Part shown: piece after piece, positions 1-40,327 of the stretch
Layout of the letters: every line of letters starts with the position of its first letter
How positions within the stretch are numbered: position 1 is the stretch's first letter
Sequence record: OZ035763.1
From: Teseptimavirus PDP351P2
Length of the DNA stretch: 40,327 nucleotides
Direction: 5' to 3' (one strand)
Notes under the pieces: generated by a model
The model's database searches: none
What the model was told of the DNA's origin: nothing
Seen by the model: the letters and a program-made list of their open reading frames with translations, nothing else
Position numbers and translations under genes: made by a program

Positions 1-29
1 TGGAAGAAAGCCAATAAGGAGTGATATGT

Positions 30-299: not shown

Positions 300-302
300 T
301 AT

Positions 303-345
303 ACTCAAGGCCACTACCTATAGTGGTCTTTATGGATGTCATTGT
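303..345 (+). promoter_or_regulatory. RNase III processing hairpin (R18.5-like)
   Basis: ACTCAAGG..CCACTACCTATAGTGG..CTTTATG motif shared with other intergenic hairpins in this window. Confidence 0.4.
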
Positions 346-394
346 CTATACGAGATGCTCCTACCGTGAAATCTGAAAGTTAACGGGAGGCATT

Positions 395-838: not shown

Positions 839-847
839 GGAGGCAAC

Positions 848-1330: not shown

Positions 1331-2166
1331 GAATAACCATGTCGTCCTTAAACCCATCTAAACAGGGAAACCCGGAGCCTAACATGGTATACGGCAATCC
1401 TGTGCTAAATGAGACAGCCATAAAGAGCCTTATAGGCTCCCTAAGCGTCTCTAAATGCCAAACGACTAAGTAGTAGGGCCAAGTGGCTCGAAACGGTGGG
1501 AGAGCATTTACGGATGCTCTAAGATATAGTCTCGTCTATGGTGAGAAGCCATAGCACCATTTATTACGTAACACATAAGGAGTCTAACATGACCACTATG
1601 AAGAAAACTCGATATGAAGTAGGTTCAATCCATGAGTCCCCTAAAGGTCCGCTCAAGGTCCTCGAGTACATTCCGGGATATAAGGACCGCTCAACAGGTA
1701 AAAAAGTACATCCTCGCGTAGTAATTCGTATGATGAACACAGGGACTGTGCTCAACGTTCAAACCACGAATATACCAGATGGTAAGTTTGAGGACTATCG
1801 ACGTCCCACAGTTTACGGCATTGGGTATATAGGGTCTTCCATTAAAATCACCGCTAGAGGGACATTCATTCGGCGTGTGTATGACCTATGGGCCAACATG
1901 CTTAAGCGCGTGGTTCATGAGTATCAGGGAGTATCCGTGGACCCAAGATGGCTCAACTTTACGAATTTCTTGGCGACTATTCCTGATGTTAAGGGATATG
2001 CTGCGTGGGAGCGTGGTGAGGATGTTCATCTGGATAAAGACCTAGCTGGGAATAAACGATACTCATTGGAGAACTGTGCGTTCATTCCAGCTAAAGACAA
2101 CATTCGAGAGTCTTCGTTACGTAGGTGGCGTAAGAAATAACGAGCTTACGTTAAGATAATTATTCG
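1331..2166 (+). mobile_element. putative group I self-splicing intron interrupting gene 19
   Basis: Removing 836 bp restores a continuous 586-codon frame (ADD|VEIPSN as in T7 gp19); exon ends in T, insert ends in G; intron 1341-1347 GTCGTCC pairs with exon 1324-1330 GGACGAT giving a U-G wobble at the 5' splice site; core-like GACTAAG (1464-1470) and AAGATATAGTC (1521-1531). Confidence 0.75.
1589..2140 (+). CDS. intron-encoded putative homing endonuclease, 183 aa, degenerate HNH-like C-terminal motif
   Basis: ORF inside the insert with own SD (AAGGAG 8 nt upstream of ATG 1589); C-terminus VHLDKDLAGNKRYSLENCAFIPAKDN resembles an HNH motif; track ORF begins at upstream ATG 1538. Confidence 0.55.
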   Translation: MTTMKKTRYEVGSIHESPKGPLKVLEYIPGYKDRSTGKKVHPRVVIRMMNTGTVLNVQTTNIPDGKFEDYRRPTVYGIGYIGSSIKITARGTFIRRVYDLWANMLKRVVHEYQGVSVDPRWLNFTNFLATIPDVKGYAAWERGEDVHLDKDLAGNKRYSLENCAFIPAKDNIRESSLRRWRKK

Positions 2167-3444
2167 GTGGAAATTCCATCTAACAGTGCAACTATGGGTG
2201 CCCGTGAGAAGCTATGGACTCTCGTTCAGGAGTTCGCTGCGTTACTTAAACCGCTGCCTTCCTCTCGCGTTATCTACCTTGGTACGCCTCAGACTGAGAT
2301 GACTCTCTATAAGGAACTTGAGGATAACCGTGGGTATACCACTATCATCTGGCCCGCTCTGTACCCAAGGACTCGTGAAGAGAACCTATATTACGCACAG
2401 CGCCTTGCTCCTATGCTGCGTGCTGAGTACGATGAGAACCCTGAGGCACTCGCTGGGACTCCTACTGACCCTGTGCGCTTTGACCGTGATGACCTTCGTG
2501 AGCGTGAGTTGGAATACGGTAAGGCTGGCTTCACACTACAGTTCATGCTTAACCCGAATCTGAGTGATGCCGAGAAGTACCCTCTGAGGCTCCGTGACGC
2601 TATCGTAGCGGCCTTAGACTTAGAGAAGGCCCCAATGCATTACCAGTGGCTTCCGAACCGTCAGAACATCATTGAGGACCTTCCTAACGTTGGTCTTAAG
2701 GGTGATGACCTTCATACTTACCACGATTGCTCCAACAACTCTGGTCAGTACCAACAGAAGATTCTGGTCATTGACCCTAGTGGTCGCGGTAAGGACGAAA
2801 CAGGTTACGCTGTACTGTACACCCTGAACGGTTACATCTACCTTATGGAAGCTGGAGGTTTCCGTGATGGCTACTCCGATAAGACCCTTGAGTTGCTCGC
2901 TAAGAAAGCCAAGCAATGGGGAGTCCAGACGGTTGTCTATGAGAGTAACTTCGGTGACGGTATGTTCGGTAAGGTATTCAGTCCTATCCTTCTTAAACAC
3001 CACAACTGTGCTATGGAAGAGATTCGTGCTCGTGGTATGAAGGAAATGCGTATTTGTGATACCCTTGAGCCAGTCATGCAGACTCACCGCCTTGTCATTC
3101 GTGATGAGGTCATTAGGGCCGACTATCAGTCCGCTCGTGACGTAGACGGTAAGCATGACGTTAAGTATTCACTGTTCTACCAGATGACCCGTATCACTCG
3201 TGAGAAAGGTGCTCTGGCTCATGATGACCGATTGGATGCCCTTGCGTTAGGCATTGAGTATCTCCGTGAGTCCATGCAGTTGGATTCCGTTAAGGTAGAA
3301 GGTGAAGTGCTTGCTGACTTCCTTGAGGAGCACATGATGCGCCCTACGGTAGCTGCTACGCATATCATTGAGATGTCTGTGGGAGGAGTTGATGTGTACT
3401 CTGAGGACGATGAGGGATACGGTACGTCTTTCATTGAGTGGTGA
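2167..3444 (+). CDS. 19: terminase large subunit, exon 2 (codons 162-586)
   Basis: Frame resumes GTG GAA ATT ([17 protein letters not shown]...), collinear with recalled T7 gp19 to the C-terminus ...GYGTSFIEW. Confidence 0.9.
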
Positions 3445-3481
3445 TTTATGAGGCCAAGGAAGGCCAATTTAAGGAGGTAAT

Positions 3482-3925
3482 ATGCTAAGTAAGAAGAAGT
3501 ATGTAGTCGATAAGGAGACTGGCTGCTGGAACTTTAAGGGTTGTAAGACGAAGAGTGGCTATGGTCGTCTCCGTGTAAATGGAGTCCATTGGATGGCCCA
3601 CAGGTATTCCCTGAGTTGTCATCTAGGCAGACCGATAGCTGACGGAATGGTTGTGATGCACCTGTGCGATAACCCATCGTGTGTTAACCCTGAGCATCTT
3701 AAGGAAGGGACTCAGAAGGAGAACATAGAGGATTGTATATCAAAAGGTAGGGCGATAAAGGCTACCGGTAAACGTGATGTGTCGAGAAGAGACCCTAGCG
3801 AGGAGCGTAAGGCTATAGTTATACGGCGCTACCATAAAGGATGGACAGCAACGTCCATAGCGAGATACCATAAGCTCTCTGTAGCGTGGGTAAAGAGGGT
3901 CATCGAGGCTTACCTAAGTGATTGA
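3482..3925 (+). CDS. free-standing HNH homing endonuclease (HNH_3-like)
   Basis: Strong SD AAGGAGG; motifs GC..GYGR, HR, HLCDNPSCVNPEHL, GTQKEN; no counterpart at this position in T7. Confidence 0.85.
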   Translation: MLSKKKYVVDKETGCWNFKGCKTKSGYGRLRVNGVHWMAHRYSLSCHLGRPIADGMVVMHLCDNPSCVNPEHLKEGTQKENIEDCISKGRAIKATGKRDVSRRDPSEERKAIVIRRYHKGWTATSIARYHKLSVAWVKRVIEAYLSD

Positions 3926-3976
3926 TATTTGAAATTAGTGATACAGGTCTAAGTATATGATTCCAGACCATTATTC

Positions 3977-3999
3977 TAATTCGACTCACTATAGGGAGA
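3977..3999 (+). promoter_or_regulatory. T7 RNAP promoter phiOR-like
   Basis: TAATTCGACTCACTATAGGGAGA, 1 mismatch to the 23-bp consensus. Confidence 0.8.
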
Positions 4000-4089
4000 A
4001 GCCTACCTAAAGATAACTATAAGACTTAAAGTGTCCTATAAGGTAGGTTGTTATTATATAGATACAACCAACATAAAGGAGGGAGACTC

Positions 4090-4239
4090 ATGTTCCGCTT
4101 ATTGTTGAACCTATTGCGGCATAGAGTCACCTACCGATTTCTTGTGGTACTTTGTGCTGCCATTGGGTACGCATCTCTTAATGGAGACCTCAGTTCACTG
4201 GAGTCTGCCGTTTGCTCTATACTCACTTGTAGCGATTAG
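4090..4239 (+). CDS. 19.5: gp19.5 homolog, 49 aa
   Basis: ATG 4090 after AAGGAGGGAG; MFRLLLNLLRHRVTYRFLVVLCAA... matches recalled T7 gp19.5; track ORF 4048..4239 is an upstream extension. Confidence 0.8.
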   Translation: MFRLLLNLLRHRVTYRFLVVLCAAIGYASLNGDLSSLESAVCSILTCSD

Positions 4240-4477
4240 GTCTTCCTGACCGACTGATGGCTCACCGAGGGATTCAGCGGTATGATTGCATCACACCACT
4301 TCATCCCTATAGAGTCAAGTCCTAAGGTATACCCATAAAGAGCCTCTAATGGTCTATCCTAAGGTCTATACCTAAAGATAGGCCATCCTATCAGTGTCAC
4401 CTAAAGAGAGGCTTAGAGAGGGCCTAAGGAGTCCCTAGAGGGTCCTTTAAAATATACCATAAAAATCTGAATGACTA

Positions 4478-4626
4478 TCTCACAGTGTACGGACCCAAAG
4501 TTCCCCCATAGGGGTACCCAAAGCCCAGCCAATCACCTAAAGTCAACCTTCGGTTGGCCTTGAGGGTCCCTAAAGGGTTGGTGGTTGGTCCTTTGGGTTT
4601 ACCTTTGAGTGTCTCTTCGTGTCCCT
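4478..4626. repeat. terminal repeat of the linear genome, single copy as at a concatemer junction
   Basis: TCTCACAGTGTACGGACC...GTGTCCCT is collinear with the recalled T7 160-bp terminal repeat; genome ends map here. Confidence 0.6.
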
Positions 4627-4629
4627 ATC

Positions 4630-4800
4630 TGTTCAACATCCTAAAGTATCCTCCTAAAGTCACCTCCTAAAGTCATTCCTACCGTCTACAGCCTAAAGAC
4701 TACACTTAAAGACCCATTCAGTCAATCCCTATCTTAAAGACCATCCTAAAGACCATCCTAAAGACCATCCTAAAGACCATCCTAAAGCCTATTCCTAAAG
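4630..4800 (+). repeat. left-end CCTAAAG-type short repeat array, including 4 exact tandem copies of AAAGACCATCCT (4736-4783)
   Basis: Repeated CCTAAAG / CTTAAAG heptamers and a perfect 12-mer x4 read directly in sequence; same position as the T7 left-end repeats. Confidence 0.7.
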
Positions 4801-4844
4801 ATGCCTCGTTGTTGCCTATAAAGAGATACCTTTAATCATTGTCT

Positions 4845-4867
4845 TAATACGACTCACTATAAGGGGA
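4845..4867 (+). promoter_or_regulatory. T7 RNAP promoter phiOL-like
   Basis: TAATACGACTCACTATAAGGGGA. Confidence 0.7.
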
Positions 4868-4921
4868 TACCACTTAAAGACCCTTAAAAGAGATTAATTT
4901 GAGAATTTATTAAAAAGAGTA

Positions 4922-4955
4922 TTGACTTAAAGAGTCCTAGGGATTACTATTCATC
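4922..4955 (+). promoter_or_regulatory. host sigma70 early promoter A1-like
   Basis: TTGACT -35 at 4922-4927 in the AAAAAGAGTATTGACTTAAAG context of T7 A1; -10-like element about 17 nt downstream. Confidence 0.6.
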
Positions 4956-5045
4956 TCGTCAACGGGACAACGGCCTAAAGCCACTCCCCGAGATACCAGG
5001 GTCAACCGGATAAGTAGGCAGCCTGTAAGCCATACGAAAAACAGG

Positions 5046-5080
5046 TTGACAGCCTCCTTTAAAAGCTGTAAGATGTACCA
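5046..5080 (+). promoter_or_regulatory. host sigma70 early promoter (single A2/A3-like)
   Basis: TTGACA (5046-5051), 17-nt spacer, TAAGAT (5069-5074). Confidence 0.55.
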
Positions 5081-5149
5081 CGAAATGACGGAACAGTGAG
5101 GCGCAACACTGAAACGCGCTAGGGTCTAACGAAACCTGACCGACATGCT

Positions 5150-5245
5150 CTTTAACAATTTGGTAAATAGCTCTTGAGGTGCACGAATAGCGGATAACTC
5201 AAGGGTATCGCAAGGTGCCCTTTATGATATTCACTAATAACTGCA
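5150..5245 (+). promoter_or_regulatory. RNase III processing site R0.3-like
   Basis: Hairpin with ACTCAAGG...CCCTTTATGAT motif directly upstream of gene 0.3. Confidence 0.5.
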
Positions 5246-7493: not shown

Positions 7494-10145
7494 ATGAACA
7501 CGATTAACATCGCTAAGAACGACTTCTCTGACATCGAACTGGCCGCTATCCCGTTTAATACTCTGGCTGACCATTACGGTGAGCGTTTAGCTCGCGAACA
7601 GTTGGCCCTTGAGCATGAGTCTTACGAAATGGGTGAAGCACGCTTCCGCAAGATGTTTGAGCGTCAACTTAAAGCTGGTGAGGTCGCAGATAACGCTGCC
7701 GCCAAGCCTCTTATCACTACCCTGCTCCCTAAGATGATTGCACGCATCAACGATTGGTTTGAGGAAGTGAAAGCTAAGCGAGGCAAGCGCCCGACAGCCT
7801 TCCAGTTCCTGCAAGAAATCAAGCCGGAGGCGGTAGCTTATAGCACCATTAAGACCACTCTGGCTTGTCTAACCAGTGCAGACAATACAACCGTTCAGGC
7901 AGTAGCCAGCGCAATCGGTCGAGCCATTGAGGATGAAGCTCGCTTCGGTCGAATCCGTGACCTTGAAGCTAAGCACTTCAAGAAAAACGTTGAGGAACAA
8001 CTTAACAAGCGTGTAGGTCACGTCTATAAGAAAGCATTCATGCAAGTTGTCGAGGCTGACATGCTCTCTAAGGGTCTACTTGGTGGCGAGGCGTGGTCTT
8101 CGTGGCATAAGGAAGACTCCATTCACGTTGGGGTGCGCTGCATCGAGATGCTCATTGAGTCCACCGGAATGGTTAGCTTACATCGTCAAAATGCTGGCGT
8201 AGTAGGGCAAGACTCTGAGACTATCGAACTCACACCGGAATACGCTGAGGCTATCGCAACCCGTGCAGGTGCGCTGGCTGGTATCTCTCCGATGTTCCAA
8301 CCTTGCGTAGTTCCTCCTAAGCCGTGGACTGGTATTACTGGTGGTGGCTATTGGGCTAACGGTCGTCGCCCTCTGGCACTTGTACGTACCCACAGCAAGA
8401 AAGCACTGATGCGCTACGAAGATGTTTACATGCCTGAGGTGTACAAAGCGATTAACATTGCGCAAAACACCGCATGGAAAATCAACAAGAAAGTCCTAGC
8501 GGTCGCCAACGTAATCACCAAGTGGAAGCACTGCCCGGTCGAGGACATCCCAGCGATTGAGCGTGAAGAACTCCCGATGAAACCGGAAGACATTGACACG
8601 AATCCTGAGGCTCTCACCGCGTGGAAACGTGCCGCTGCTGCTGTGTACCGTAAAGATAAGGCTCGCAAGTCTCGCCGTATAAGCCTTGAGTTCATGCTTG
8701 AGCAAGCCAATAAGTTCGCTAACCATAAGGCCATCTGGTTCCCTTACAACATGGACTGGCGCGGTCGTGTTTACGCTGTGTCAATGTTCAACCCGCAAGG
8801 TAACGACATGACCAAAGGTCTGCTGACGCTGGCGAAAGGTAAACCAATCGGTAAAGAAGGTTACTACTGGCTGAAAATCCACGGTGCAAACTGTGCAGGA
8901 GTCGATAAGGTTCCGTTCCCTGAGCGCATCAAGTTCATTGAGGACAACCACGAGAACATCATGGCTTGCGCTAAGTCTCCTCTGGAGAACACTTGGTGGG
9001 CTGAGCAAGATTCTCCATTCTGCTTCCTTGCGTTCTGCTTTGAGTACGCTGGGGTACAGCACCACGGCCTGAGCTACAACTGCTCTCTTCCACTGGCGTT
9101 CGATGGGTCTTGCTCTGGCATTCAGCACTTCTCCGCGATGCTTCTCGACGAGGTAGGTGGTCTTGCTGTTAACCTGCTGCCTAGTGCAACCGTTCAGGAC
9201 ATCTACGGGATTGTCGCTAAGAAAGTCAATGTGATTCTGCAAGAAGACGTAATCAACGGGACCGACAACGAAGTAGTCACCGTGACTGACGAGAACACTG
9301 GTGAAATCTCTGAGAAAGTCAAGCTGGGCACCAAGGCGCTGGCTGGTCAATGGCTGGCTCACGGTGTTACTCGCAGCGTGACTAAGCGTTCGGTCATGAC
9401 GCTGGCTTACGGGTCCAAAGAGTTCGGCTTCCGTCAACAAGTGCTGGAAGATACCATTCAGCCAGCTATTGATTCCGGTAAAGGTCTGATGTTCACTCAA
9501 CCGAATCAGGCTGCTGGTTACATGGCTAAACTAATTTGGGAAGCTGTTAGCGTCACGGTGGTGGCTGCGGTTGAGGCAATGAACTGGCTCAAGTCTGCTG
9601 CTAAGCTGCTGGCTGCTGAGGTCAAAGATAAGAAGACTGGAGAGATTCTTCGCAAGCGTTGCGCTGTACACTGGGTAACTCCTGATGGCTTCCCTGTATG
9701 GCAGGAATACAAGAAGCCTATTCAGACTCGCTTGAACCTGATGTTCCTCGGTCAGTTCCGTCTACAACCGACCATTAACACCAACAAGGATAGCGAGATT
9801 GATGCACACAAGCAGGAGTCCGGTATAGCTCCTAACTTTGTGCATAGTCAAGATGGTAGCCACCTGCGTAAGACTGTAGTTTGGGCACACGAGAAGTACG
9901 GAATCGAATCGTTTGCACTGATTCACGACTCCTTCGGGACCATTCCGGCTGACGCTGCCAACCTGTTCAAAGCTGTGCGCGAAACTATGGTCGACACCTA
10001 TGAGTCTTGTGATGTACTGGCTGACTTCTACGACCAGTTCGCTGACCAGTTGCATGAGTCTCAATTGGATAAAATGCCAGCACTTCCGGCTAAGGGTAAC
10101 TTGAATCTACAAGACATCCTTAAGTCAGACTTCGCGTTTGCGTGA
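7494..10145 (+). CDS. 1: single-subunit DNA-dependent RNA polymerase (T7 RNAP homolog)
   Basis: 883 aa, MNTINIAKNDFSDIELAAIPFNTLADHYGERLAREQLALEHESYEMGEARF...; catalytic motifs DGSCSGIQH and HDSFGT. Confidence 0.98.
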   Translation: MNTINIAKNDFSDIELAAIPFNTLADHYGERLAREQLALEHESYEMGEARFRKMFERQLKAGEVADNAAAKPLITTLLPKMIARINDWFEEVKAKRGKRPTAFQFLQEIKPEAVAYSTIKTTLACLTSADNTTVQAVASAIGRAIEDEARFGRIRDLEAKHFKKNVEEQLNKRVGHVYKKAFMQVVEADMLSKGLLGGEAWSSWHKEDSIHVGVRCIEMLIESTGMVSLHRQNAGVVGQDSETIELTPEYAEAIATRAGALAGISPMFQPCVVPPKPWTGITGGGYWANGRRPLALVRTHSKKALMRYEDVYMPEVYKAINIAQNTAWKINKKVLAVANVITKWKHCPVEDIPAIEREELPMKPEDIDTNPEALTAWKRAAAAVYRKDKARKSRRISLEFMLEQANKFANHKAIWFPYNMDWRGRVYAVSMFNPQGNDMTKGLLTLAKGKPIGKEGYYWLKIHGANCAGVDKVPFPERIKFIEDNHENIMACAKSPLENTWWAEQDSPFCFLAFCFEYAGVQHHGLSYNCSLPLAFDGSCSGIQHFSAMLLDEVGGLAVNLLPSATVQDIYGIVAKKVNVILQEDVINGTDNEVVTVTDENTGEISEKVKLGTKALAGQWLAHGVTRSVTKRSVMTLAYGSKEFGFRQQVLEDTIQPAIDSGKGLMFTQPNQAAGYMAKLIWEAVSVTVVAAVEAMNWLKSAAKLLAAEVKDKKTGEILRKRCAVHWVTPDGFPVWQEYKKPIQTRLNLMFLGQFRLQPTINTNKDSEIDAHKQESGIAPNFVHSQDGSHLRKTVVWAHEKYGIESFALIHDSFGTIPADAANLFKAVRETMVDTYESCDVLADFYDQFADQLHESQLDKMPALPAKGNLNLQDILKSDFAFA

Positions 10146-22821: not shown

Positions 22822-23076
22822 ATGTTAACACCTATTAACCAATTACTTAAGAACCCTAACGATATTCCAGATGTACCTCGTGCAACCGCTGAGTATCTAC
22901 AGGTTCGATTCAACTATGCGTACCTCGAAGCGTCTGGTCATATAGGACTTATGCGTGCTAATGGTTGTAGTGAAGCCCACATCTTGGGTTTCATTCAGGG
23001 CCTACAGTATGCCTCTAACGTCATTGACGAGATTGAGCTACGCAAGGAACAACTAAGAGATGATGGGGAGGATTGA
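22822..23076 (+). CDS. 6.5: gp6.5 homolog
   Basis: 84 aa [36 protein letters not shown]... Confidence 0.9.
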
Positions 23077-23080
23077 CACT

Positions 23081-23347
23081 ATGTGTTTCTCACCGAAAAT
23101 TAAAACTCCGAAGATGGATACCAATCAGATTCGAGCCGTTGAGCCAGCGCCTCTGACCCAAGAAGTGTCAAGCGTGGAGTTCGGTGGGTCTTCTGATGAG
23201 ACGGATACCGAAGGCACCGAAGTGTCTGGACGCAAAGGCCTCAAGGTAGAACGCGATGATTCCGTAGCGAAGTCTAAAGCCAGCGGTTCTGGTTCAGCTC
23301 GTATGAAATCTTCTATCCGTAAAGCTGCCTTTGGAGGTAAGAAGTAA
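23081..23347 (+). CDS. 6.7: gp6.7 homolog (virion protein), 88 aa
   Basis: MCFSPKIKTPKMDTNQIRAVEPAP...; track ORF 23060..23347 is an upstream extension. Confidence 0.85.
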   Translation: MCFSPKIKTPKMDTNQIRAVEPAPLTQEVSSVEFGGSSDETDTEGTEVSGRKGLKVERDDSVAKSKASGSGSARMKSSIRKAAFGGKK

Positions 23348-23739
23348 TGTACGAAGTTATCGACTGTGAGAGTCGCTTTCCGGCAACCATTTGGACAGTA
23401 CGTCAGTTGGGTCTCCCTAAGGGATTCGCTGGGGAAGTAACGTATAGTCTCTACGTAGACGAAGTGATGGACGCCTCTGGTCTTGAAGAGTCCTTTGTGG
23501 TTGACTCTCAGGGTCGAAAGGTTGCGTACTTTGCGTGGAGCGTTGGCTCTGATGCGCATCATAAAGGGGACATTCTGGACCTGAACAGCGTGGTGATTAA
23601 TCCCTACGTCGAAGCTCCGGGAATCCAGAAGTTCCTGAGTAAGCACTTCAAGACGCTGGCGAAGCTGAACGATTGTGCTTGGGTGTCCCGTTGCAAACAC
23701 GAAGATGGGACTTTGAGAATTTACTTTAAGGAGGTTTAA
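23347..23739 (+). CDS. 7: gp7 homolog (virion/host-range protein)
   Basis: 130 aa MYEVIDCESRFPATIWTVRQLGLPKGFAGE... Confidence 0.85.
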   Translation: MYEVIDCESRFPATIWTVRQLGLPKGFAGEVTYSLYVDEVMDASGLEESFVVDSQGRKVAYFAWSVGSDAHHKGDILDLNSVVINPYVEAPGIQKFLSKHFKTLAKLNDCAWVSRCKHEDGTLRIYFKEV

Positions 23740-23741
23740 TC

Positions 23742-24020
23742 ATGGGTAAGGTAGTTAAGAAAGTCAAGAAGGCCGTTAAGAAAGTTGCTAAGGAAGTGAC
23801 CCGCCCGGTTAAACAGGTTGCTGGTGCGCTGGCTGGTGGTATTGGTGAAGCACAGGCAGTGGAAGCTCCGCAGGCTGCTGCACCGATTGTTGACGTACCT
23901 GAGAAAGAGGTTTCCACTGAGGACGAAGCACAGACCGAAAGCGGACGTAAGAAAGCTCGTGCTGGCGGTAAGAAGTCCTTGAGTGTGGCTCGTAGCTCCG
24001 GTGGGGGCATCAACATTTGA
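23742..24020 (+). CDS. 7.3: gp7.3 homolog (tail-associated protein)
   Basis: 92 aa lysine-rich MGKVVKKVKKAVKKVAKEVTRPVKQ... Confidence 0.85.
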   Translation: MGKVVKKVKKAVKKVAKEVTRPVKQVAGALAGGIGEAQAVEAPQAAAPIVDVPEKEVSTEDEAQTESGRKKARAGGKKSLSVARSSGGGINI

Positions 24021-24034
24021 ACAGGAGGTGACAC

Positions 24035-25645
24035 ATGGCTGAGAAACGAACAGGACTTGCGGAGGATGGCGCAAAGTCTGTATATGAGCGCTTAAAGAAC
24101 GACCGTGCTCCGTATGAGACACGCGCTCAGAATTGCGCTCAGTATACCATCCCCTCACTGTTCCCTAAGGACTCCGATAACTCCTCTACAGATTATACCA
24201 CGCCGTGGCAAGCTGTGGGCGCTCGTGGTCTAAACAATCTAGCATCTAAGCTCATGCTGGCGCTATTCCCGATGCAGACTTGGATGCGACTTACTATATC
24301 TGAATATGAAGCAAAGCAGCTACTGAGCGACCCCGATGGACTCGCTAAGGTCGATGAGGGTCTCTCGATGGTAGAGCGTATCATCATGAACTACATTGAG
24401 TCTAACAGTTACCGAGTGACTCTCTTTGAGGCTCTCAAGCAGTTAGTCGTAGCGGGTAACGTCCTGCTGTACCTACCGGAACCAGAAGGGTCAAACTATA
24501 ATCCCATGAAGCTGTACCGATTGTCTTCTTATGTGGTCCAACGAGACGCATTCGGCAACGTTCTGCAAATGGTGACTCGTGACCAGATAGCTTTTGGTGC
24601 TCTCCCTGAGGACATCCGTAAGGCTGTAGAAGGCCAAGGTGGAGAGAAGAAAGCTGATGAGACCGTTGATGTGTATACTCACATCTATCTGGATGAGGAC
24701 TCAGGTGAATACCTCCGGTACGAAGAGGTCGAGGGTATGGAAGTTCAAGGCTCCGATGGGTCTTACCCTAAAGAGGCTTGCCCATACATCCCGATTCGTA
24801 TGGTTCGTCTGGATGGCGAATCCTACGGTCGTTCGTACATTGAGGAATACTTAGGTGACTTACGGTCCCTTGAGAACCTCCAAGAGGCCATCGTTAAGAT
24901 GTCAATGATTAGCTCTAAGGTTATCGGCTTAGTGAATCCTGCTGGTATCACCCAGCCACGCCGACTGACCAAAGCTCAGACTGGTGACTTCGTTACTGGT
25001 CGTCCAGAAGACATCTCGTTCCTCCAACTGGAGAAGCAAGCAGACTTTACCGTAGCCAAGGCTGTCAGTGACGCTATCGAGGCTCGCCTTTCGTTTGCCT
25101 TTATGTTGAACTCTGCGGTTCAGCGCACAGGTGAACGAGTGACCGCCGAAGAGATTCGGTATGTCGCTTCTGAACTTGAAGATACTTTAGGTGGTGTCTA
25201 CTCTATCCTTTCTCAAGAATTACAATTGCCTCTGGTACGAGTGCTCTTGAAGCAACTACAAGCCACGCAACAGATTCCTGAGTTACCTAAGGAAGCCGTA
25301 GAGCCAACCATTAGCACAGGTCTGGAAGCAATCGGTCGAGGTCAAGACCTTGATAAGCTGGAGCGTTGTGTCGCTGCGTGGGCTGCTCTGGCTCCTATGC
25401 GTGATGACCCTGATATTAACTTGGCGATGATTAAGTTGCGCATTGCCAACGCTATCGGTATTGACACTTCTGGTATTCTACTCACCGAAGAACAGAAGCA
25501 ACAGAAGATGGCTCAACAGTCTATGCAAATGGGTATGGATAATGGTGCTGCTGCGCTGGCTCAAGGTATGGCTGCACAGGCTACAGCTTCACCTGAGGCG
25601 ATGGCTGCTGCTGCTGATTCCGTAGGTTTACAGCCGGGCATTTAA
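24035..25645 (+). CDS. 8: portal (head-tail connector) protein (T7 gp8 homolog)
   Basis: 536 aa, collinear with recalled gp8. Confidence 0.97.
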   Translation: MAEKRTGLAEDGAKSVYERLKNDRAPYETRAQNCAQYTIPSLFPKDSDNSSTDYTTPWQAVGARGLNNLASKLMLALFPMQTWMRLTISEYEAKQLLSDPDGLAKVDEGLSMVERIIMNYIESNSYRVTLFEALKQLVVAGNVLLYLPEPEGSNYNPMKLYRLSSYVVQRDAFGNVLQMVTRDQIAFGALPEDIRKAVEGQGGEKKADETVDVYTHIYLDEDSGEYLRYEEVEGMEVQGSDGSYPKEACPYIPIRMVRLDGESYGRSYIEEYLGDLRSLENLQEAIVKMSMISSKVIGLVNPAGITQPRRLTKAQTGDFVTGRPEDISFLQLEKQADFTVAKAVSDAIEARLSFAFMLNSAVQRTGERVTAEEIRYVASELEDTLGGVYSILSQELQLPLVRVLLKQLQATQQIPELPKEAVEPTISTGLEAIGRGQDLDKLERCVAAWAALAPMRDDPDINLAMIKLRIANAIGIDTSGILLTEEQKQQKMAQQSMQMGMDNGAAALAQGMAAQATASPEAMAAAADSVGLQPGI

Positions 25646-25744: not shown

Positions 25745-26668
25745 ATGGCTGAATCTAATGCAGACGTATATGCATCTTTTGGCGTGAACTCCGCTGTGAT
25801 GTCTGGTGGTTCCGTTGAGGAACATGAGCAGAATATGCTGGCTCTTGATGTTGCTGCCCGTGATGGCGATGATGCAATCGAGTTAGCGTCCGACGAAGTG
25901 GAAACAGAACGTGACCTGTATGACAACTCTGACCCATTCGGTCAAGAGGATGACGAAGGCCGCATTCAGGTTCGTATTGGCGATGGCTCTGAGCCGACCG
26001 ATGCGGACACTGGAGAAGAAAGCGTTGAGGGCACCGAAGGTTCCGAAGAGTTTACCCCGCTGGGTGAGACTCCAGAAGAACTGGTAGCTGCCTCTGAGCA
26101 ACTTGGTGAGCACGAAGAGGGCTTCCAAGAGATGATTAACATTGCTGCCGAGCGTGGCATGAGTGCCGAGACCATCGAGGCCATCCAGCGTGAGTACGAG
26201 GAGAACGAAGAGTTGTCCGCTGAGTCCTACGCTAAGCTGGCTGAAATTGGCTACACTAAGGCTTTCATCGACTCGTACATTCGCGGTCAAGAAGCTCTGG
26301 TGGAGCAGTACGTAAACAGTATCGTTGAGTACGCTGGTGGTCGTGAGCGTTTTGACGCACTCTATAGTCACCTTGAGACGCACAATCCTGAGGCTGCACA
26401 GTCGCTGGACAATGCGTTGACCAATCGTGACTTAGCGACCGTTAAGGCCATCATCAACTTGGCTGGTGAGTCTCGCGCTAAGGCGTTTGGTCGTAAGCCA
26501 ACTCGTAGTGTGACTAATCGTGCTATTCCGGCTAAACCTCAGGCTACCAAGCGTGAAGGCTTTGCTGACCGTAGCGAGATGATTAAAGCTATGAGCGACC
26601 CTCGGTATCGCACAGATGCCAACTATCGTCGTCAAGTCGAACAGAAAGTAATCGACTCGAACTTCTGA
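25745..26668 (+). CDS. 9: capsid assembly scaffolding protein (T7 gp9 homolog)
   Basis: 307 aa, acidic, MAESNADVYASFGVNSAVMSGG... Confidence 0.95.
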   Translation: MAESNADVYASFGVNSAVMSGGSVEEHEQNMLALDVAARDGDDAIELASDEVETERDLYDNSDPFGQEDDEGRIQVRIGDGSEPTDADTGEESVEGTEGSEEFTPLGETPEELVAASEQLGEHEEGFQEMINIAAERGMSAETIEAIQREYEENEELSAESYAKLAEIGYTKAFIDSYIRGQEALVEQYVNSIVEYAGGRERFDALYSHLETHNPEAAQSLDNALTNRDLATVKAIINLAGESRAKAFGRKPTRSVTNRAIPAKPQATKREGFADRSEMIKAMSDPRYRTDANYRRQVEQKVIDSNF

Positions 26669-26681
26669 TAGACTCTGAAAT

Positions 26682-26704
26682 TAATACGACTCACTATAGG
26701 GAGA
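26682..26704 (+). promoter_or_regulatory. T7 RNAP promoter phi10
   Basis: TAATACGACTCACTATAGGGAGA followed by CCACAACGGTTTCCCTCTAGAAAT leader and strong SD AAGGAG. Confidence 0.9.
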
Positions 26705-26766
26705 CCACAACGGTTTCCCTCTAGAAATCATTCTTTGTTTAACTTTCTTAAGAAGGAGACATACAT

Positions 26767-27801
26767 ATGGCTAACATGACTGGTGGACAGCAACTGGGTA
26801 CTAACCAAGGTAAAGGCGTAAGTACGGGTTCCGATAAACTGGCGTTGTTCTTGAAGGTATTTGGCGGTGAAGTCCTTACTGCGTTCGCTCGTACCTCCGT
26901 GACCACTTCTCGCCACATGGTCCGTTCCATCTCCAGCGGTAAATCCGCTCAGTTCCCTGTTCTGGGTCGCACTCAGGCAGCGTATCTGGCTCCGGGTGAG
27001 AACCTCGACGATAAACGTAAAGACATCAAACACACCGAGAAGGTAATCACCATTGATGGTCTCCTGACTGCTGACGTTCTGATTTACGACATTGAGGACG
27101 CGATGAACCACTACGACGTTCGCTCTGAGTACACCTCTCAGTTAGGTGAATCTCTGGCGATGGCTGCGGATGGTGCGGTTCTGGCAGAGATTGCTGGCCT
27201 GTGTAACTTGGCGAGCGCATCTGATGAGAACATTGCAGGTCTGGGCACTGCCACTGTGATTGAGACCACTCAGGTCAAGACTGCACTTACCGACCAAGTT
27301 GCTCTTGGTAAGGAGATTATTGCGGCTCTGACTAAAGCTCGTGCGGCTCTGACCAAGAACTATGTACCAGCGGCTGACCGTGTGTTCTACTGCGACCCTG
27401 ATAGCTACTCTGCGATTCTGGCTGCACTGATGCCGAACGCTGCTAACTACGCTGCACTGATTGACCCTGAGCGCGGCTCTATCCGCAACGTTATGGGCTT
27501 CGAGGTGGTTGAGGTTCCACACCTGACGGCTGGTGGCGCTGGCACCTCTCGTTCTGATGCTACTGGTCAGAAACATGCCTTCCCCGAAGGCGTTGGCGGT
27601 AACAACAAGGTGTCTAAAGTCAACGTTATCGGCCTGTTCATGCATCGTTCTGCGGTTGGTACTGTGAAGCTGCGTGACTTGGCTCTGGAACGTGCTCGTC
27701 GAGCTAACTTCCAAGCGGACCAGATTATCGCTAAGTACGCAATGGGCCACGGTGGTCTGCGCCCAGAAGCTGCTGGTGCAGTGGTTTTCAAAGCGGGGTA
27801 A
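26767..27801 (+). CDS. 10A: major capsid protein 10A
   Basis: 344 aa MANMTGGQQLGTNQGKGVSTGSDKLALFLKVFGGEVLTAFAR... Confidence 0.97.
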   Translation: MANMTGGQQLGTNQGKGVSTGSDKLALFLKVFGGEVLTAFARTSVTTSRHMVRSISSGKSAQFPVLGRTQAAYLAPGENLDDKRKDIKHTEKVITIDGLLTADVLIYDIEDAMNHYDVRSEYTSQLGESLAMAADGAVLAEIAGLCNLASASDENIAGLGTATVIETTQVKTALTDQVALGKEIIAALTKARAALTKNYVPAADRVFYCDPDSYSAILAALMPNAANYAALIDPERGSIRNVMGFEVVEVPHLTAGGAGTSRSDATGQKHAFPEGVGGNNKVSKVNVIGLFMHRSAVGTVKLRDLALERARRANFQADQIIAKYAMGHGGLRPEAAGAVVFKAG

Positions 27802-27953
27802 TGCAGGAAGTGACCTCAACGGTCGCTGCTAGTCCCGAAGAGGTGAGCATTACCGCCGAAGAGAGTCTAACGCCAGCACAAAAAGCTGCCCGTACACGCG
27901 CTGCCAACAAAGCCCGAAAGGAAGCTGAATTGGCTGCTGGCACTGACGAGTAA
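26767..27953 (+). CDS. 10B: minor capsid protein 10B made by -1 ribosomal frameshift near the end of 10A
   Basis: Slippery GGTTTTC at 27783-27789; -1 frame continues QSGVMQEVTSTVAASPEEVSITAEESLTPAQKAARTRAANKARKEAELAAGTDE to TAA 27951-27953. Confidence 0.7.
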
Positions 27954-28001
27954 CTAGCATAACCCCTTGGGGCCTCTAAACGGGTCTTGAGGGGTTTTTT
28001 G
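27954..28001 (+). terminator. Tphi late terminator
   Basis: CTAGCATAACCCCTTGGGGCCTCTAAACGGGTCTTGAGGGGTTTTTTG, GC-rich hairpin plus U-tract. Confidence 0.9.
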
Positions 28002-28018
28002 CTTAAAGGAGGAACTAT

Positions 28019-28609
28019 ATGCGCTCATACGATATGAACGTTGAGACCGCTGCTGAGTTATCCGCTGTGAACGACATTCTGGCATCTATCGGAGAACCTC
28101 CGGTATCAACGCTGGAAGGTGACGCTAACGCAGATGTAGCGAACGCTCGGCGTATTCTCAATAAGATTAACCGACAGATTCAGTCTCGTGGCTGGACATT
28201 CAACATTGAGGAAGGCATAACGCTATTACCCGATGTTTACTCCAACCTGATTGTATACAGTGACGATTATTTATCCCTAATGGCTACTTCCGGTCAATCC
28301 ATCTACGTTAACCGAGGTGGCTATGTGTATGACCGAACGAGTCAATCAGACCGCTTTGACTCTGGCATTACCGTGAACATTATCCGTCTCCGAGACTACG
28401 ATGAGATGCCTGAGTGCTTCCGTTACTGGATTGTCACCAAGGCTTCCCGTCAGTTCAACAACCGATTCTTTGGGGCACCGGAAGTAGAGGGTGTACTTCA
28501 AGAAGAGGAAGATGAGGCTAGACGTCTCTGTATGGAGTACGAAGTGGACTACGGTGGGTACAATATGCTGGATGGCGATGCGTTCACTTCTGGTCTACTG
28601 ACTCGCTGA
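28019..28609 (+). CDS. 11: tail tubular protein A (T7 gp11 homolog)
   Basis: 196 aa [34 protein letters not shown]... Confidence 0.95.
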
Positions 28610-28630: not shown

Positions 28631-31015
28631 ATGGCACTCATTAGCCAATCAATCAAGAACTTGAAGGGTGGTATCAGTCAACAGCCTGACATCCTTCGTT
28701 ATCCAGACCAAGGGTCACGCCAAGTTAACGGTTGGTCTTCGGAGACCGAGGGCCTCCAAAAGCGTCCACCTCTGGTTTTCCTTAAGACACTTGGAGACAA
28801 CGGTGCGTTAGGCCAAGCACCTTACATTCACCTGATAAACCGTGATGAGAACGAACAGTATTACGCTGTGTTCACCGGAACAGGAATCCGTGTGTTTGAC
28901 CTTGCTGGTAACGAGAAGCAAGTTAGGTATCCTAACGGTTCCAACTACATCCAGACCGCTCAGCCACGTAACGACCTGCGAATGGTTACTGTAGCAGACT
29001 ATACGTTCATCGTTAACCGTAACGTTGTTGTACAGAAGGACCCACTTCTTATCAACTTACCGAATTATAACCCTAAGCAAGACGGATTGATTAACGTTCG
29101 TGGTGGTCAGTATGGTAGGGAACTAATTGTACACATTAACGGTAAAGACGTTGCGAAGTATAAGATCCCAGATGGTAGTAAACCTGAACACGTAAACAAT
29201 ACGGATGCCCAATGGTTAGCCGAAGAGTTAGCCAAGCAGATGCGCGCTAACTTGTCTGATTGGACTGTAAATGTAGGGCAAGGGTACATCCATGTGACCG
29301 CACCTAGTGGTCAACAGATTGACTCCTTCACGACTAAAGATGGCTACGCAGACCAGTTGATTAACCCTGTGACCCACTACGCTCAGTCGTTCTCTAAGTT
29401 GCCACCTAACGCTCCTAACGGCTACATGGTGAAAATCGTAGGGGACGCCTCTAAGTCTGCCGACCAGTATTACGTTCGGTATGACGATGAGCGTAAAGTC
29501 TGGACTGAGACTTTAGGTTGGAACACTGAGTCCCAAGTTCAATGGAACACCATGCCACACGCTCTTGTGCGAGCCTCTGATGGTAATTTCGACTTCAAGT
29601 GGCTTGAGTGGTCTCCTAAGTCTTGTGGTGACGTTGACACCAACCCTTGGCCTTCTTTTGTTGGTTCAAGTATTAACGATGTGTTCTTCTTCCGTAACCG
29701 CTTAGGATTCCTTAGTGGGGAGAACATCATATTGAGTCGTACAGCCAAATACTTCAACTTCTACCCTGCGTCCATTGCCAACCTTAGTGATGATGACCCT
29801 ATAGACGTAGCTGTGAGTACCAACCGAATAGCAATCCTTAAGTACGCCGTTCCGTTCTCAGAAGAGTTACTCATCTGGTCCGATGAAGCACAATTCGTCC
29901 TGACTGCCTCGGGTACTCTCACATCTAAGTCGGTTGAGTTGAACCTAACGACCCAGTTTGACGTACAGGACCTAGCGAGACCTTTTGGGATTGGTCGTAA
30001 TGTCTACTTTGCTAGTCCGAGGTCCAGCTACACGTCCATCCACAGGTACTACGCCGTGCAGGATGTAAGTTCCGTTAAGAACTCTGAGGACATTACATCA
30101 CACGTTCCTAACTACATCCCTAATGGTGTGTTCAGTATTTGCGGAAGTGGTACGGAAAACTTCTGTTCGGTACTATCTCACGGGGACCCTAGTAAAATCT
30201 TCATATACAAATTCATGTACCTGAACGAAGAGTTAAGGCAACAGTCGTGGTCTCATTGGGACTTTGGGGAAAACGTACAGGTTCTAGCTTGTCAGAGTAT
30301 CAGCTCAGATATGTATGTTATTCTTCGCAATGAGTTCAATACGTTCCTAGCTAGAATCTCTTTCACTAAGAACGCCATTGACTTACAGGGAGAACCCTAT
30401 CGTGCCTTTATGGACATGAAGATTCGCTACACGATTCCTAGCGGAACATACAACGATGACACGTTCACTACCTCTATCCATATTCCAACCATTTATGGTG
30501 CAAACTTCGGGAGGGACAAAATCACCGTATTGGAGCCTGATGGTAAGATAACCGTATGTGAGCAACCAACTGGTGGGTGGAATAGTGACCCTTGGCTGAG
30601 ACTAAACGGTAACTTAGAGGGACGTGAAGTGTTCATTGGGTTCAACATACACTTCGTCTATGAGTTCTCTAAGTTCCTCATCAAGCAAACTGCCGACGAT
30701 GGGTCTACCTCCACGGAAGACATTGGTCGCTTGCAGTTACGCCGAGCGTGGGTTAACTACGAGGATTCTGGTACGTTCGACATTTACGTTGAGAACCAAT
30801 CGTCCAACTGGAAGTACACGATGGCTGGTGCCAGACTAGGCTCTAGCACTCTGAGGGCCGGTAGACTGAACTTAGGGACCGGACAATACCGATTCCCTGT
30901 GGTGGGCAACGCTAAGTTCAATACCGTATACATCGTGTCAGATGCGACTACCCCTCTGAACATCATTGGATGTGGCTGGGAAGGTAACTACTTACGGAGA
31001 AGTTCCGGTATTTAA
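28631..31015 (+). CDS. 12: tail tubular protein B (T7 gp12 homolog)
   Basis: 794 aa MALISQSIKNLKGGISQQPDILRYPDQGSRQVNGWSS... Confidence 0.97.
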   Translation: MALISQSIKNLKGGISQQPDILRYPDQGSRQVNGWSSETEGLQKRPPLVFLKTLGDNGALGQAPYIHLINRDENEQYYAVFTGTGIRVFDLAGNEKQVRYPNGSNYIQTAQPRNDLRMVTVADYTFIVNRNVVVQKDPLLINLPNYNPKQDGLINVRGGQYGRELIVHINGKDVAKYKIPDGSKPEHVNNTDAQWLAEELAKQMRANLSDWTVNVGQGYIHVTAPSGQQIDSFTTKDGYADQLINPVTHYAQSFSKLPPNAPNGYMVKIVGDASKSADQYYVRYDDERKVWTETLGWNTESQVQWNTMPHALVRASDGNFDFKWLEWSPKSCGDVDTNPWPSFVGSSINDVFFFRNRLGFLSGENIILSRTAKYFNFYPASIANLSDDDPIDVAVSTNRIAILKYAVPFSEELLIWSDEAQFVLTASGTLTSKSVELNLTTQFDVQDLARPFGIGRNVYFASPRSSYTSIHRYYAVQDVSSVKNSEDITSHVPNYIPNGVFSICGSGTENFCSVLSHGDPSKIFIYKFMYLNEELRQQSWSHWDFGENVQVLACQSISSDMYVILRNEFNTFLARISFTKNAIDLQGEPYRAFMDMKIRYTIPSGTYNDDTFTTSIHIPTIYGANFGRDKITVLEPDGKITVCEQPTGGWNSDPWLRLNGNLEGREVFIGFNIHFVYEFSKFLIKQTADDGSTSTEDIGRLQLRRAWVNYEDSGTFDIYVENQSSNWKYTMAGARLGSSTLRAGRLNLGTGQYRFPVVGNAKFNTVYIVSDATTPLNIIGCGWEGNYLRRSSGI

Positions 31016-38412: not shown

Positions 38413-40089
38413 ATGGCTAACGCAATTAAAACAGTTTTGACTTACCAGTTAGATGGCTCCAATCGTGATTTTAATATCCCGTTTGAGTATCTAGCCCGTA
38501 AGTTCGTAGTGGTAACTCTTATTGGTGTAGACCGAAAGGTCCTTACGATTAATACAGACTATCGCTTTGCTACGCGTACTACCATCTCACTGACCAAGGC
38601 TTGGGGTCCAGCGGATGGCTATACTACCATCGAGTTACGTCGAGTAACCTCCACAACCGACCGCTTGGTTGACTTTACGGACGGCTCAATCCTCCGTGCG
38701 TATGACCTTAACGTCGCTCAGATTCAAACGATGCATGTAGCAGAAGAGGCCCGTGACCTAACTGCCGATACTATCGGTGTCAATAATGATGGTCACTTGG
38801 ATGCGCGTGGTCGTCGAATTGTGAACCTAGCGAACGCCGTGGATGACCGTGACGCTGTTCCGCTTGGTCAACTAAAGACGATGAACCAGAGCTCTTGGCA
38901 AGCTCGCAATGAGGCTCTACAGTTCCGTAATGAGGCTGAGACTTTCAGAAATCAAGCGGAGGGCTTTAAGAACGAGTCCAGTACCAACGCTACGAACACA
39001 AAGCAGTGGCGTGATGAGGCTAAGGGGTTCCGAGATGAAGCTGAGCAGTTCAAGAATACGGCTGGTCAATATGCCACATCTGCTGGTAACTCTGCGGCTG
39101 CTGCTCATCAATCTGAGGTAAATGCTGGGAACTCTGCTACAGCATCTACTAACTCTGCGCATTTGGCAGAACAACACGCAGACCGTGCGGAACGCGAAGC
39201 AGACAAGCTGGGGAATTTTAACGGACTAGCTGGCGCAATTGACAGGGTGGATGGAACCAATGTGTACTGGAAAGGAGGTATCCATGCGAACGGACGCCTT
39301 TACCTTACCTCAGATGGTTTTGACTGTGGTCAGTATCAACAGTTCTTTGGTGGTGGCACTAATAGTTATTCTATCATGGAGTGGGGAGATGATAACGGAT
39401 GGCTGATGCATGTTCAACGTAGAGAGGGGACAACAGCGATAGGCGGTAACATCCAGTTAGTAGTAAACGGACAGATCATCACCCAAGGTGGAGCCATGAC
39501 CGGTCAGCTAAAATTGCAGAATGGGCATGTTCTTCAATTAGAGTCCGCATCCGACAAGGCTCACTATATTCTATCTAAAGATGGTAACAGGAATAACTGG
39601 TACATTGGTAGAGGGTCAGATAACAACAATGACTGTACCTTCCACTCCTATGTACATGGTACGACCTTAACACTCAAGCAGGACTATGCAGTAGTTAACA
39701 AACACTTCCACGTAGGTCAGGCCGTTGTGTCCACTGATGGTAATATTCAAGGTACTAAGTGGGGAGGTAAGTGGCTTGATGTTTACCTAAACGATACTTA
39801 CGTTAAGAAGACAATGGCTTGGACTCAAGTATGGGCTGCTGATAGTGGTAGGTTCCTGCCAGGAGGTTCTCAGACTGGTACTCTCCCACAGGACTTGCGA
39901 TTCCGCAACATATGGATTAGGACCAAACACAACTATTGGAACTTCTTCCGAACTGGTCCTGATGGTATCTACTTCCTTTCAGCCGAGGGCGGTTGGCTAA
40001 AATTCCAGATACACTCTAATGGCAGGGTATTTAAGAACATAGAGGATAGAGATGCGCCTCCAACAGCAATAGCCGTAGAGGACGTGTAA
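38413..40089 (+). CDS. 17: tail fiber protein (T7 gp17 homolog) with divergent C-terminal tip
   Basis: 558 aa; N-terminal two thirds near-identical to recalled T7 gp17; distal roughly 100 aa differ. Confidence 0.95.
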   Translation: MANAIKTVLTYQLDGSNRDFNIPFEYLARKFVVVTLIGVDRKVLTINTDYRFATRTTISLTKAWGPADGYTTIELRRVTSTTDRLVDFTDGSILRAYDLNVAQIQTMHVAEEARDLTADTIGVNNDGHLDARGRRIVNLANAVDDRDAVPLGQLKTMNQSSWQARNEALQFRNEAETFRNQAEGFKNESSTNATNTKQWRDEAKGFRDEAEQFKNTAGQYATSAGNSAAAAHQSEVNAGNSATASTNSAHLAEQHADRAEREADKLGNFNGLAGAIDRVDGTNVYWKGGIHANGRLYLTSDGFDCGQYQQFFGGGTNSYSIMEWGDDNGWLMHVQRREGTTAIGGNIQLVVNGQIITQGGAMTGQLKLQNGHVLQLESASDKAHYILSKDGNRNNWYIGRGSDNNNDCTFHSYVHGTTLTLKQDYAVVNKHFHVGQAVVSTDGNIQGTKWGGKWLDVYLNDTYVKKTMAWTQVWAADSGRFLPGGSQTGTLPQDLRFRNIWIRTKHNYWNFFRTGPDGIYFLSAEGGWLKFQIHSNGRVFKNIEDRDAPPTAIAVEDV

Positions 40090-40147
40090 TAAGCATCAAA
40101 GGAACTACTTTAAGTCCACGGATGGACTATCACACTAAGGAGGACAC

Positions 40148-40327
40148 ATGTTGTCATTGGACTTTAACAACGAACTAATTAAAGCGGCACCGATTGTAGG
40201 TACAGGTGTTGCGGATGTTAGTGCAAGACTGTTCTTCGGGCTAAGCCTTAATGAATGGTTCTATGTGGCTGCTATCGCCTACACAGTGGTTCAGATTGGT
40301 GCCAAGGTAGTCGATAAGATGATTGAC
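40148..40327 (+). CDS. 17.5: holin (T7 gp17.5 homolog), 3' end truncated by the window edge
   Basis: MLSLDFNNELIKAAPIVGTGVADVSARLFFGLSLNEWFYVAAIAYTVVQIGAKVVDKMID; remainder wraps to window positions 1-20. Confidence 0.85.
   Translation, partial: MLSLDFNNELIKAAPIVGTGVADVSARLFFGLSLNEWFYVAAIAYTVVQIGAKVVDKMID

Follow-up and report, generated by a model that had tools for sequence, protein, structure and literature searches.

Gene 10 of the T7-like phage Teseptimavirus PDP351P2 very probably gives rise to two capsid proteins, the major protein 10A and a C-terminally extended form, 10B, the latter through a -1 ribosomal frameshift at the heptamer GGTTTTC, close to the end of the 10A reading frame. 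The feature is already known, being the orthologue of a textbook recoding site, the programmed -1 frameshift of T7 gene 10A/10B reportedly described by Condron, Atkins and Gesteland in 1991. Its significance is a matter of annotation only, as it adds one more orthologue and no new mechanism. The part with some research value is a comparative hint that a local RNA hairpin may take part in the stimulation of the shift from the 3' side.

The window (the whole stretch of 40,327 nucleotides in record OZ035763.1) is the complete genome of the phage in a circularly permuted form, which begins in the holin/terminase region, and is approximately 94% identical to phage 13a, and 93.5% identical to T7, over 25 kb. 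An open reading frame (ORF) of 883 amino acids at 7494-10145 has the length and the position of the T7 RNA polymerase gene, and is presumably its counterpart, while the last ORF of the window, with 558 amino acids (38413-40089), is taken to be the tail-fibre gene on the basis of its position. The features of the gene 10 region are listed in Table 1. The phi10 promoter is placed here as is the annotated phi10 of 13a and T7. The identity of the 10A protein is clear from the match of residues 62-340 to the Pfam family PF21703 (Gp10A-like, E 3.6e-111), and from the alignment of residues 1-342 to the 10A chains of T7 in the Protein Data Bank (PDB 2xvr/3j7v, E 2e-200).

Table 1. Features of the gene 10 region, with positions in the whole window.
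Feature	Position	Strand	Basis
phi10 class III T7 RNA polymerase promoter, drives gene 10	26682..26704	+	exact match to TAATACGACTCACTATAGGGAGA
gene 10A, major capsid protein, 344 aa	26767..27801	+	ORF list and translation; ATG 26767, TAA 27799-27801
slippery heptamer G GUU UUC, the -1 shift site (putative)	27783..27789	+	sequence, phase
-1 frame segment of 10B, 54 codons and TAA (predicted)	27789..27953	+	translation QSGVMQEVTSTVAASPEEVSITAEESLTPAQKAARTRAANKARKEAELAAGTDE
predicted RNA stem-loop, candidate local stimulator	27794..27858	+	fold prediction; starts 4 nt past the heptamer
conserved basic core of the 10B tail, LTPAQKAARTRAANKA	27867..27914	+	kept across several genera, third codon positions vary
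Tphi transcription terminator, 15-bp stem, 6-nt loop, U-run	27961..28000	+	terminator scan

Read in the 10A frame, the heptamer falls as G GTT TTC, in which the two triplets encode Val340 and Phe341, 16 nt ahead of the 10A stop codon. The -1 frame is free of stop codons from 27735 to 27950, and 10B would correspond to join(26767..27789, 27789..27953), a protein of 395 amino acids, which is 51 longer than 10A. The predicted junction peptide of this product is ...AAGAVVF-QSGVMQEVTSTVAASPEEVSITAEESLTPAQK, and the predicted peptide spanning the 10A/tail junction reads ...GAVVFQSGVMQEVTSTVAASPEEVSITAEESLTPAQK. The stem-loop of the terminator (27961-27996), which is followed by a T-run, begins 8 nt past the -1 stop codon, and folds at -26.7 kcal/mol (z -4.9). 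Its sequence is identical to that of the T7 Tphi, with CCCC at 27963-27966 in the 5' arm, and the pattern ACCCCTTGGG(G)...GAGGGG plus a T-run recurs across the lineages, with few deviating loci.

The first-pass annotation of this DNA had placed the heptamer at 27783-27789, with a -1 frame that stays open as far as the TAA at 27951-27953, just ahead of Tphi, and the sequence agrees with it on each of these points. The observation is thus confirmed, apart from a miscount of the codons, which were put at 53 beyond the 10A stop, whereas the -1 frame contains 56 codons when counted from the GGT at 27783, of which 54 (27789-27950) come after the slipped Phe codon and 50 are situated entirely beyond the 10A stop. 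As 53 is the difference between the two T7 proteins (398 vs 345 amino acids), the figure seems to have been taken from T7. The further reading of the locus as a T7-type 10A/10B arrangement is supported by the homology of gp10A, the identical heptamer in the identical phase, the homologous tail, and the identical Tphi. This anatomy of the sequence, its conservation, and the signs of coding in the tail are direct results of the present analysis.

The locus was compared with 80 related loci from IMG/VR. In 71 of these, GGTTTTC is found 13-25 nt ahead of the 10A stop codon, and its position in T7, 13a, and phiA1122 is the same as that observed here. Four other relatives have A/C-GTTTTC in place of GGTTTTC, while five T3-like loci (L062, L070, L074, L076, and L077) have C CCA AAG at the equivalent place. 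The heptamer of the phage Ebrios has C as its first base, and the variation of this base, both here and in the four IMG/VR relatives, indicates that strict tandem slippage is not needed everywhere. The -1 frame remains open for 38-93 codons beyond the stop in 79 of the 80 relatives (the exception, L079, has a premature TAG), and the +1 frame is shut within 17 codons in the 80 relatives. The -1 frame is also invariably open backwards over the heptamer in the relatives, for at least 10 codons before the stop.

The relatives have tails of two kinds, one of 96 residues and the other of 44-58 residues, and the window belongs to the latter group. The 96-residue tails presumably correspond to the Ig-like extension that PMC5009743 describes for T3. 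The tails of 44-58 residues share a core, LTP(A/Q)QKAA(R/I)TRA(A/R)NKA, which is common to several genera. The tail of the present phage is homologous to the 10B tails of T7, 13a, and phiA1122, and matches PHROG 12582 (E 3e-25). The NCBIfam search returned nothing for 10B, the Pfam search found no domain in the 54-residue tail, and the PDB matches were with chains of 10A length, none of them covering the tail. Natural variants of the tail are found in L079, in which it is truncated, and L008, in which it has an internal deletion.

These comparisons bear directly on the possibility that the tail is encoded by a small free gene, a 50-codon ORF at 27801-27953 that would be translated by termination-reinitiation at the ATG of a TAATG overlap, to produce a separate 5-kDa "head protein". 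The ATG at 27801 does overlap the TAA at 27799-27801, in a classic coupling arrangement, and TAATG is invariant in all 15 sequences of the T7 group. Many database records annotate exactly such an ORF, and PHROG 12582 was itself built from those calls. The invariance of TAATG may also be explained, however, by the double coding constraint and the predicted helix GUAAUGC/GCAUUAC, and the Met is not found in the remaining GGTTTTC lineages with a homologous tail, in which Leu or other residues take its place. As the ATG is not kept in these lineages, the fused product is the conserved feature. The constantly open -1 frame over the heptamer also argues against an independent start, and a GGGG that stops 2 nt short of the ATG is the sole run resembling a Shine-Dalgarno sequence, with no properly spaced ribosome-binding site, so that neither a conserved start codon nor a ribosome-binding site of its own was found for this ORF. 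The fused 10B is, moreover, established experimentally in T7 and in Kvp1. A free gene is very unlikely on this evidence, and the separate-CDS annotations of the tail are regarded as artefacts of the pipelines; low-level reinitiation at TAATG could nevertheless take place alongside the frameshifting.

A different possibility is that no recoding occurs at all, and that an untranslated 3' region lacks -1 stop codons by chance, behind an equally fortuitous heptamer. Neither the open frame nor the heptamer exceeds chance expectation, or reaches significance, by itself. The probability of 54 codons without a stop is 0.14 given the local base composition, and 0.06 given that of the window, while GGTTTTC occurs three times in the window (at 27783, 28774, and 31087), where approximately two copies are expected from the base composition. 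The copy at 28774 belongs to gene 12 and shares the codon phase, but has no -1 extension, given that the -1 frame reaches a stop after a single codon. This gene 12 heptamer provides a useful internal negative control. The combination of the heptamer with a long -1 frame is found only in gene 10 among the 36 genes of the window, and no other in-phase slippery heptamer followed by more than five open -1 codons was found in these genes. A gene-by-gene comparison of the number of codons open past the stop was discarded, as it is confounded by the downstream genes in compact phage genomes.

Given that the length of the open frame and the number of heptamers are insufficient, the support for recoding comes from the comparison with the relatives. 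The Nei-Gojobori counts in the -1 frame returned a pN/pS of 0.025 for the core motif in the T7 group, and 0.15 in 33 unique sequences, while the tail as a whole has a value of 0.27 in the T7 group, and synonymous third-position changes are abundant in the tail motif. Judging from these counts, purifying selection acts on the -1 reading of the tail, which is the signature of a translated frame. A chance open frame is excluded by these values and by the conservation, that is, by a -1 frame that is open in 79 of the 80 relatives while the +1 frame closes quickly, and by a tail peptide that is kept across genera. With the experimental precedents of T7 and Kvp1 added to this, an absence of recoding is scarcely credible.

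Phage RNA polymerases slip on long homopolymer runs, and the four T of the heptamer might thus lead a T7-type RNA polymerase to make mRNAs one base shorter or longer, from which 10B would be translated, but the run is just 4 nt long, whereas a much longer one, typically of eight or more, is required for productive transcriptional slippage, and the T3-type relatives have C CCA AAG, a classic ribosomal tandem-slip site, in the same place. The literature on T7 also assigns the event to the ribosome (PMC1635266, PMC5009743), and transcriptional slippage has next to no probability here.

In the preferred reading, that of a -1 shift by the ribosome, a single gene 10 mRNA would yield the two capsid proteins. 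Most ribosomes would read 26767-27801 and terminate, producing 10A, while a minority would slip backward by one base on the heptamer. The tRNA-Phe would re-pair fully in this slip, from UUC to UUU, and the tRNA-Val imperfectly, from GUU to GGU, with two of the three positions paired. From 27789 onwards, the slipped ribosomes would translate the -1 frame until they reach the TAA at 27951-27953. The resulting 10B would be composed of residues 1-341 of 10A and the 54-residue tail, in which an acidic, probably disordered linker would be followed by the conserved basic segment LTPAQKAARTRAANKARKEAELAA. This 10B would be a minor subunit, co-assembling into the capsid shell.

We infer the shift itself, its level (approximately 10% in T7), the incorporation of 10B into the virion, and the roles of the 3' elements from the experiments in T7 and Kvp1. 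The heptamer GGTTTTC is the shift site of T7 gene 10 (PMC1635266, PMC5009743), where the -1 shift occurs in approximately 10% of translations (PMC1635266), and G_GU is accepted as an imperfect X_XX part of the tandem-slip motif X_XXY_YYZ (PMC5009743). MS/MS has proven the 10B of Kvp1, a phage that shares this heptamer and the core motif of the tail (PMC2579914). The protein is dispensable in T7 (PMC3276506, PMC5592923).

The efficiency of the shift is probably set by the 3' RNA context, in which the candidate elements are a stem-loop 4-8 nt past the heptamer and/or the 5' arm of Tphi, approximately 170 nt downstream. When the heptamer and a few native downstream nucleotides were followed by EYFP in place of the native tail, shifting was below 1% (PMC1635266), and the comparison with the level of approximately 10% in wild-type T7 indicates that some 3' context is needed, while leaving the hairpin and the terminator unseparated. 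The CCCC of the terminator, located over 200 nt to the 3' side of the T7 site, is reported to stimulate gene 10 frameshifting, in a manner left unexplained in a 2016 review (PMC5009743). The pairing of this CCCC with a G-run 3' of the slip site was considered and set aside, as a GGGG is found here at 27795-27798, but none is present in phiA1122 or in the KP32-like and Berlinvirus groups. The full-length fold places the G-run region and the terminator in separate local structures. An upstream Shine-Dalgarno stimulator of the dnaX type was also rejected; the only candidate, found by reading the sequence by eye, is GGTG at 27775-27778, 4 nt ahead of the heptamer, a distance unsuited to -1 stimulation, and its bases are accounted for by the codons of Ala-Gly-Ala.

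The local stem-loop is predicted to have an outer helix, between 27794-27804 and 27847-27858, in which CGGGGUAAUGC pairs with GCAUUACC-G-CCG, and an inner hairpin at 27809-27827 (AGUGACC-ucaac-GGUCGCU). The minimum free energy of the structure is -28.8 kcal/mol, with z-scores of -3.2 in an 81-nt fold and -3.3 in a 70-nt fold, while a 90-nt fold from the same start has the same structure with a z-score of only -1.8, and 10 of the 200 shuffles fold as well. The 70 nt that follow the heptamer are the most structured of 29 such segments across gene 10. Among 11 representatives whose slip site contains GTTTTC, preceded by A in two cases, the same segment ranks first in six, and third or better in nine. 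The L023 and L031 groups and the T3-like phages do not show this top rank, and the local stem-loop itself is missing from some of the GGTTTTC lineages, namely the L023, L031, and L037 groups. The consensus fold of the T7 group retains the helix GUAAUGC/G(C/U)(A/G)UUAC, with one compensatory pair, and the spacer between the heptamer and the structure is 7 nt in this consensus, compared with 4 nt in the present phage and 5-9 nt in the canonical X XXY YYZ cassette. The Rfam search of 26600-28100 (E<=1) returned no family.

A hairpin with a 5-nt loop, located 17-26 nt past GGTTTTC, is found in Teseptimavirus, Berlinvirus, Helsettvirus, and other lineages of the Studiervirinae. In the Berlinvirus, Helsettvirus, L066, and L020 lineages, it comprises 9 bp and a 5-nt loop, and its offset is constant, at +26 to +48 nt. 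The stems of this fixed-offset hairpin differ in sequence, with compensating changes, and 53 of the 54 cells pair, compared with 48-58% when the 3' partner is slid, with double changes in five of the nine pairs. In an alignment of 13 sequences that includes the T7 group, 90.6% of the positions are paired, compared with 33-65% when slid, although this alignment is loop-centred, and biased towards structure. As read from these alignments, the structure of the hairpin is conserved over several genera, whereas its sequence is not.

It is possible, if doubtful, that the predicted stem-loop is a functional and under-appreciated local stimulator of gene 10 frameshifting, and it could act alone or jointly with the CCCC element of the terminator. 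If this were true, a local stimulator would explain the linker half of the tail, in which the protein is free to vary while the RNA is still structured.

The database records of the relatives describe the tail in more than one way. The T7 (NC_001604) and phiA1122 records have the same joined CDS, with the remark "translated via frameshift" (the 10B of NC_001604 is given as join 22967..23989, 23989..24162), and that of 13a states that it "may be translated via slippery sequence". The tail ORF is a separate CDS in vB_YenP_WW2, which is the closest record (95.5% identical in the gene 10 stretch), and in Ebrios, fPS-54-ocr, and many of the RefSeq re-annotations. The correct annotation of the present genome would be 10A at 26767..27801 and 10B as join(26767..27789, 27789..27953), and not a capsid gene accompanied by a free 50-codon "head protein".

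Among the known systems, the closest is that of T7. The heptamer of T7, G GUU UUC, is identical in sequence and phase, and likewise precedes the 10A stop by 16 nt, while the 10A of the present phage can be aligned to that of T7 over the full length (E 2e-200). The phi10 promoter and the leader are also shared, Tphi is identical, and the tail is homologous, with the core LTPAQ(K/E)AARTRAANKARKEAELAA. The two phages differ in the length of the tail, with 54 residues here and 56 after Phe341 in T7, and in that of 10B (395 vs 398 amino acids). One codon is deleted here in the acidic linker (SITA-EES, compared with SVTSTEET in T7), and the C-terminus is AAGTDE, rather than AAATAEQ. The sequence that follows the heptamer is AAAGCGGGG here, and AAAGTGGAG in T7, a difference that results in a longer predicted outer helix in the present phage. 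The phages phiA1122, 13a, and Kvp1 share both the GGTTTTC shift site and the core motif of the tail, although the tail is shorter (45-48 residues) in Kvp1 and the Berlinvirus group, where the linker and the hairpin sequence are also different.

In T3 and phiYeO3-12, a -1 shift towards the end of the homologous capsid gene also leads to a minor, C-terminally extended subunit, with a terminator just downstream. The slip site of the T3 type is C CCA AAG (Lys), however, and its 86-residue extension, described as Ig-like in PMC5009743, is unrelated to the tail found here; the T7 tail, unlike that of T3, is not Ig-like (PMC5009743). The window, with its G GTT TTC and a 54-residue tail that has no Pfam domain, falls outside the T3 type. 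The X XXY YYZ cassettes of dnaX and the retroviruses share the logic of the tandem-slippage heptamer, and a predicted 3' stem-loop at a short spacer, but the first triplet here is G GU, rather than X XX, and the re-pairing in the P site would be imperfect. The dnaX cassette also differs in its upstream Shine-Dalgarno, which has no counterpart at a dnaX-like spacing in the present sequence, as read by eye, while T7 is distinguished from both the dnaX and the retroviral cassettes by the distal element in the terminator that is reported to matter for its frameshifting (PMC5009743).

The G GTT TTC heptamer at which ribosomes reading the capsid gene 10A would slip into the -1 frame is not diagnostic by itself, as shown by another copy in gene 12, which has the same codon phase as the gene 10 site. 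The -1 frame reaches a stop one codon after this copy, so that slippage there would merely truncate the protein. The heptamer also varies at its first base: five related phages (L004, L017, L018, L031, and L085), all of which retain the open -1 tail, carry A or C in place of G at the gene 10 site (A GTT TTC or C GTT TTC). Re-pairing in the P-site is expected to be poorer in these variants, suggesting that slippage of a single tRNA (Phe) can suffice.

Downstream of the slip site in gene 10, a stem-loop is predicted (see the table), with an inner hairpin whose 5-nt loop recurs in relatives. This hairpin is predicted 17-26 nt 3' of the slip site, in L047 and L087 and likewise in L089, L066, L020, L018, and L021. 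In Teseptimavirus, Berlinvirus, Helsettvirus, and further lineages, the structure of the slip-site hairpin is conserved, while its sequence is not, and the stems vary between lineages with compensatory changes. The hairpin is missing from the L023, L031, and L037 groups, and from the T3-like phages, which slip on C CCA AAG at the homologous place. Where it is predicted, this structure may act as a local stimulator of frameshifting.

Coordinates of the features
Feature	Position	Location or strand
Predicted stem-loop	window 27794-27858; inner hairpin 27809-27827	3' of gene 10 slip site
Hairpin, L047/L087	+26 to +48 nt past heptamer	
In-phase G GTT TTC copy	window 28774-28780	gene 12 (28631-31015), tail tubular protein B
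Tail as separate CDS	L084 1402-1554	vB_YenP_WW2
Tail as separate CDS	L085 252-410	Ebrios
Tail as separate CDS	L089 246-371	fPS-54-ocr
T7-type promoter matches (ten)	3977, 4845, 10154, 10229, 10730, 22745, 25643, 26682, 31046, 38338	+

The two ends of the window (1-5200 and 38413-40327) show that it is a T7-like genome in circular permutation. It opens with genes for a holin, the small terminase, an Rz-like spanin, an HNH/homing endonuclease, and the large terminase. The 558-aa ORF at its other end is, judged by position, the tail-fibre gene. With regard to a terminal repeat, no direct repeat of at least 60 nt is present in two copies in the window. Ten T7-type promoter matches were recovered on the + strand. 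Five of them reproduce the class III consensus, TAATACGACTCACTATAGGGAGA, without a mismatch, and chance would give none.

Two naturally occurring tail variants fit with a dispensable 10B. In L079 (IMGVR_UViG_2700988866), an early TAG follows 19 tail codons, approximately 57 nt past the heptamer, and the tail-coding sequence is still recognisable beyond it, while an internal deletion has removed most of the basic segment of the L008 tail. Among the nearest relatives in the databases, and in numerous RefSeq re-annotations, the 10B tail is presented as its own CDS of 41-52 codons, unjoined to 10A, starting at the ATG within TAATG and named “head protein” or “capsid and scaffold”. This separate CDS is a recurrent annotation artefact, which has given rise to a PHROG family, PHROG 12582.
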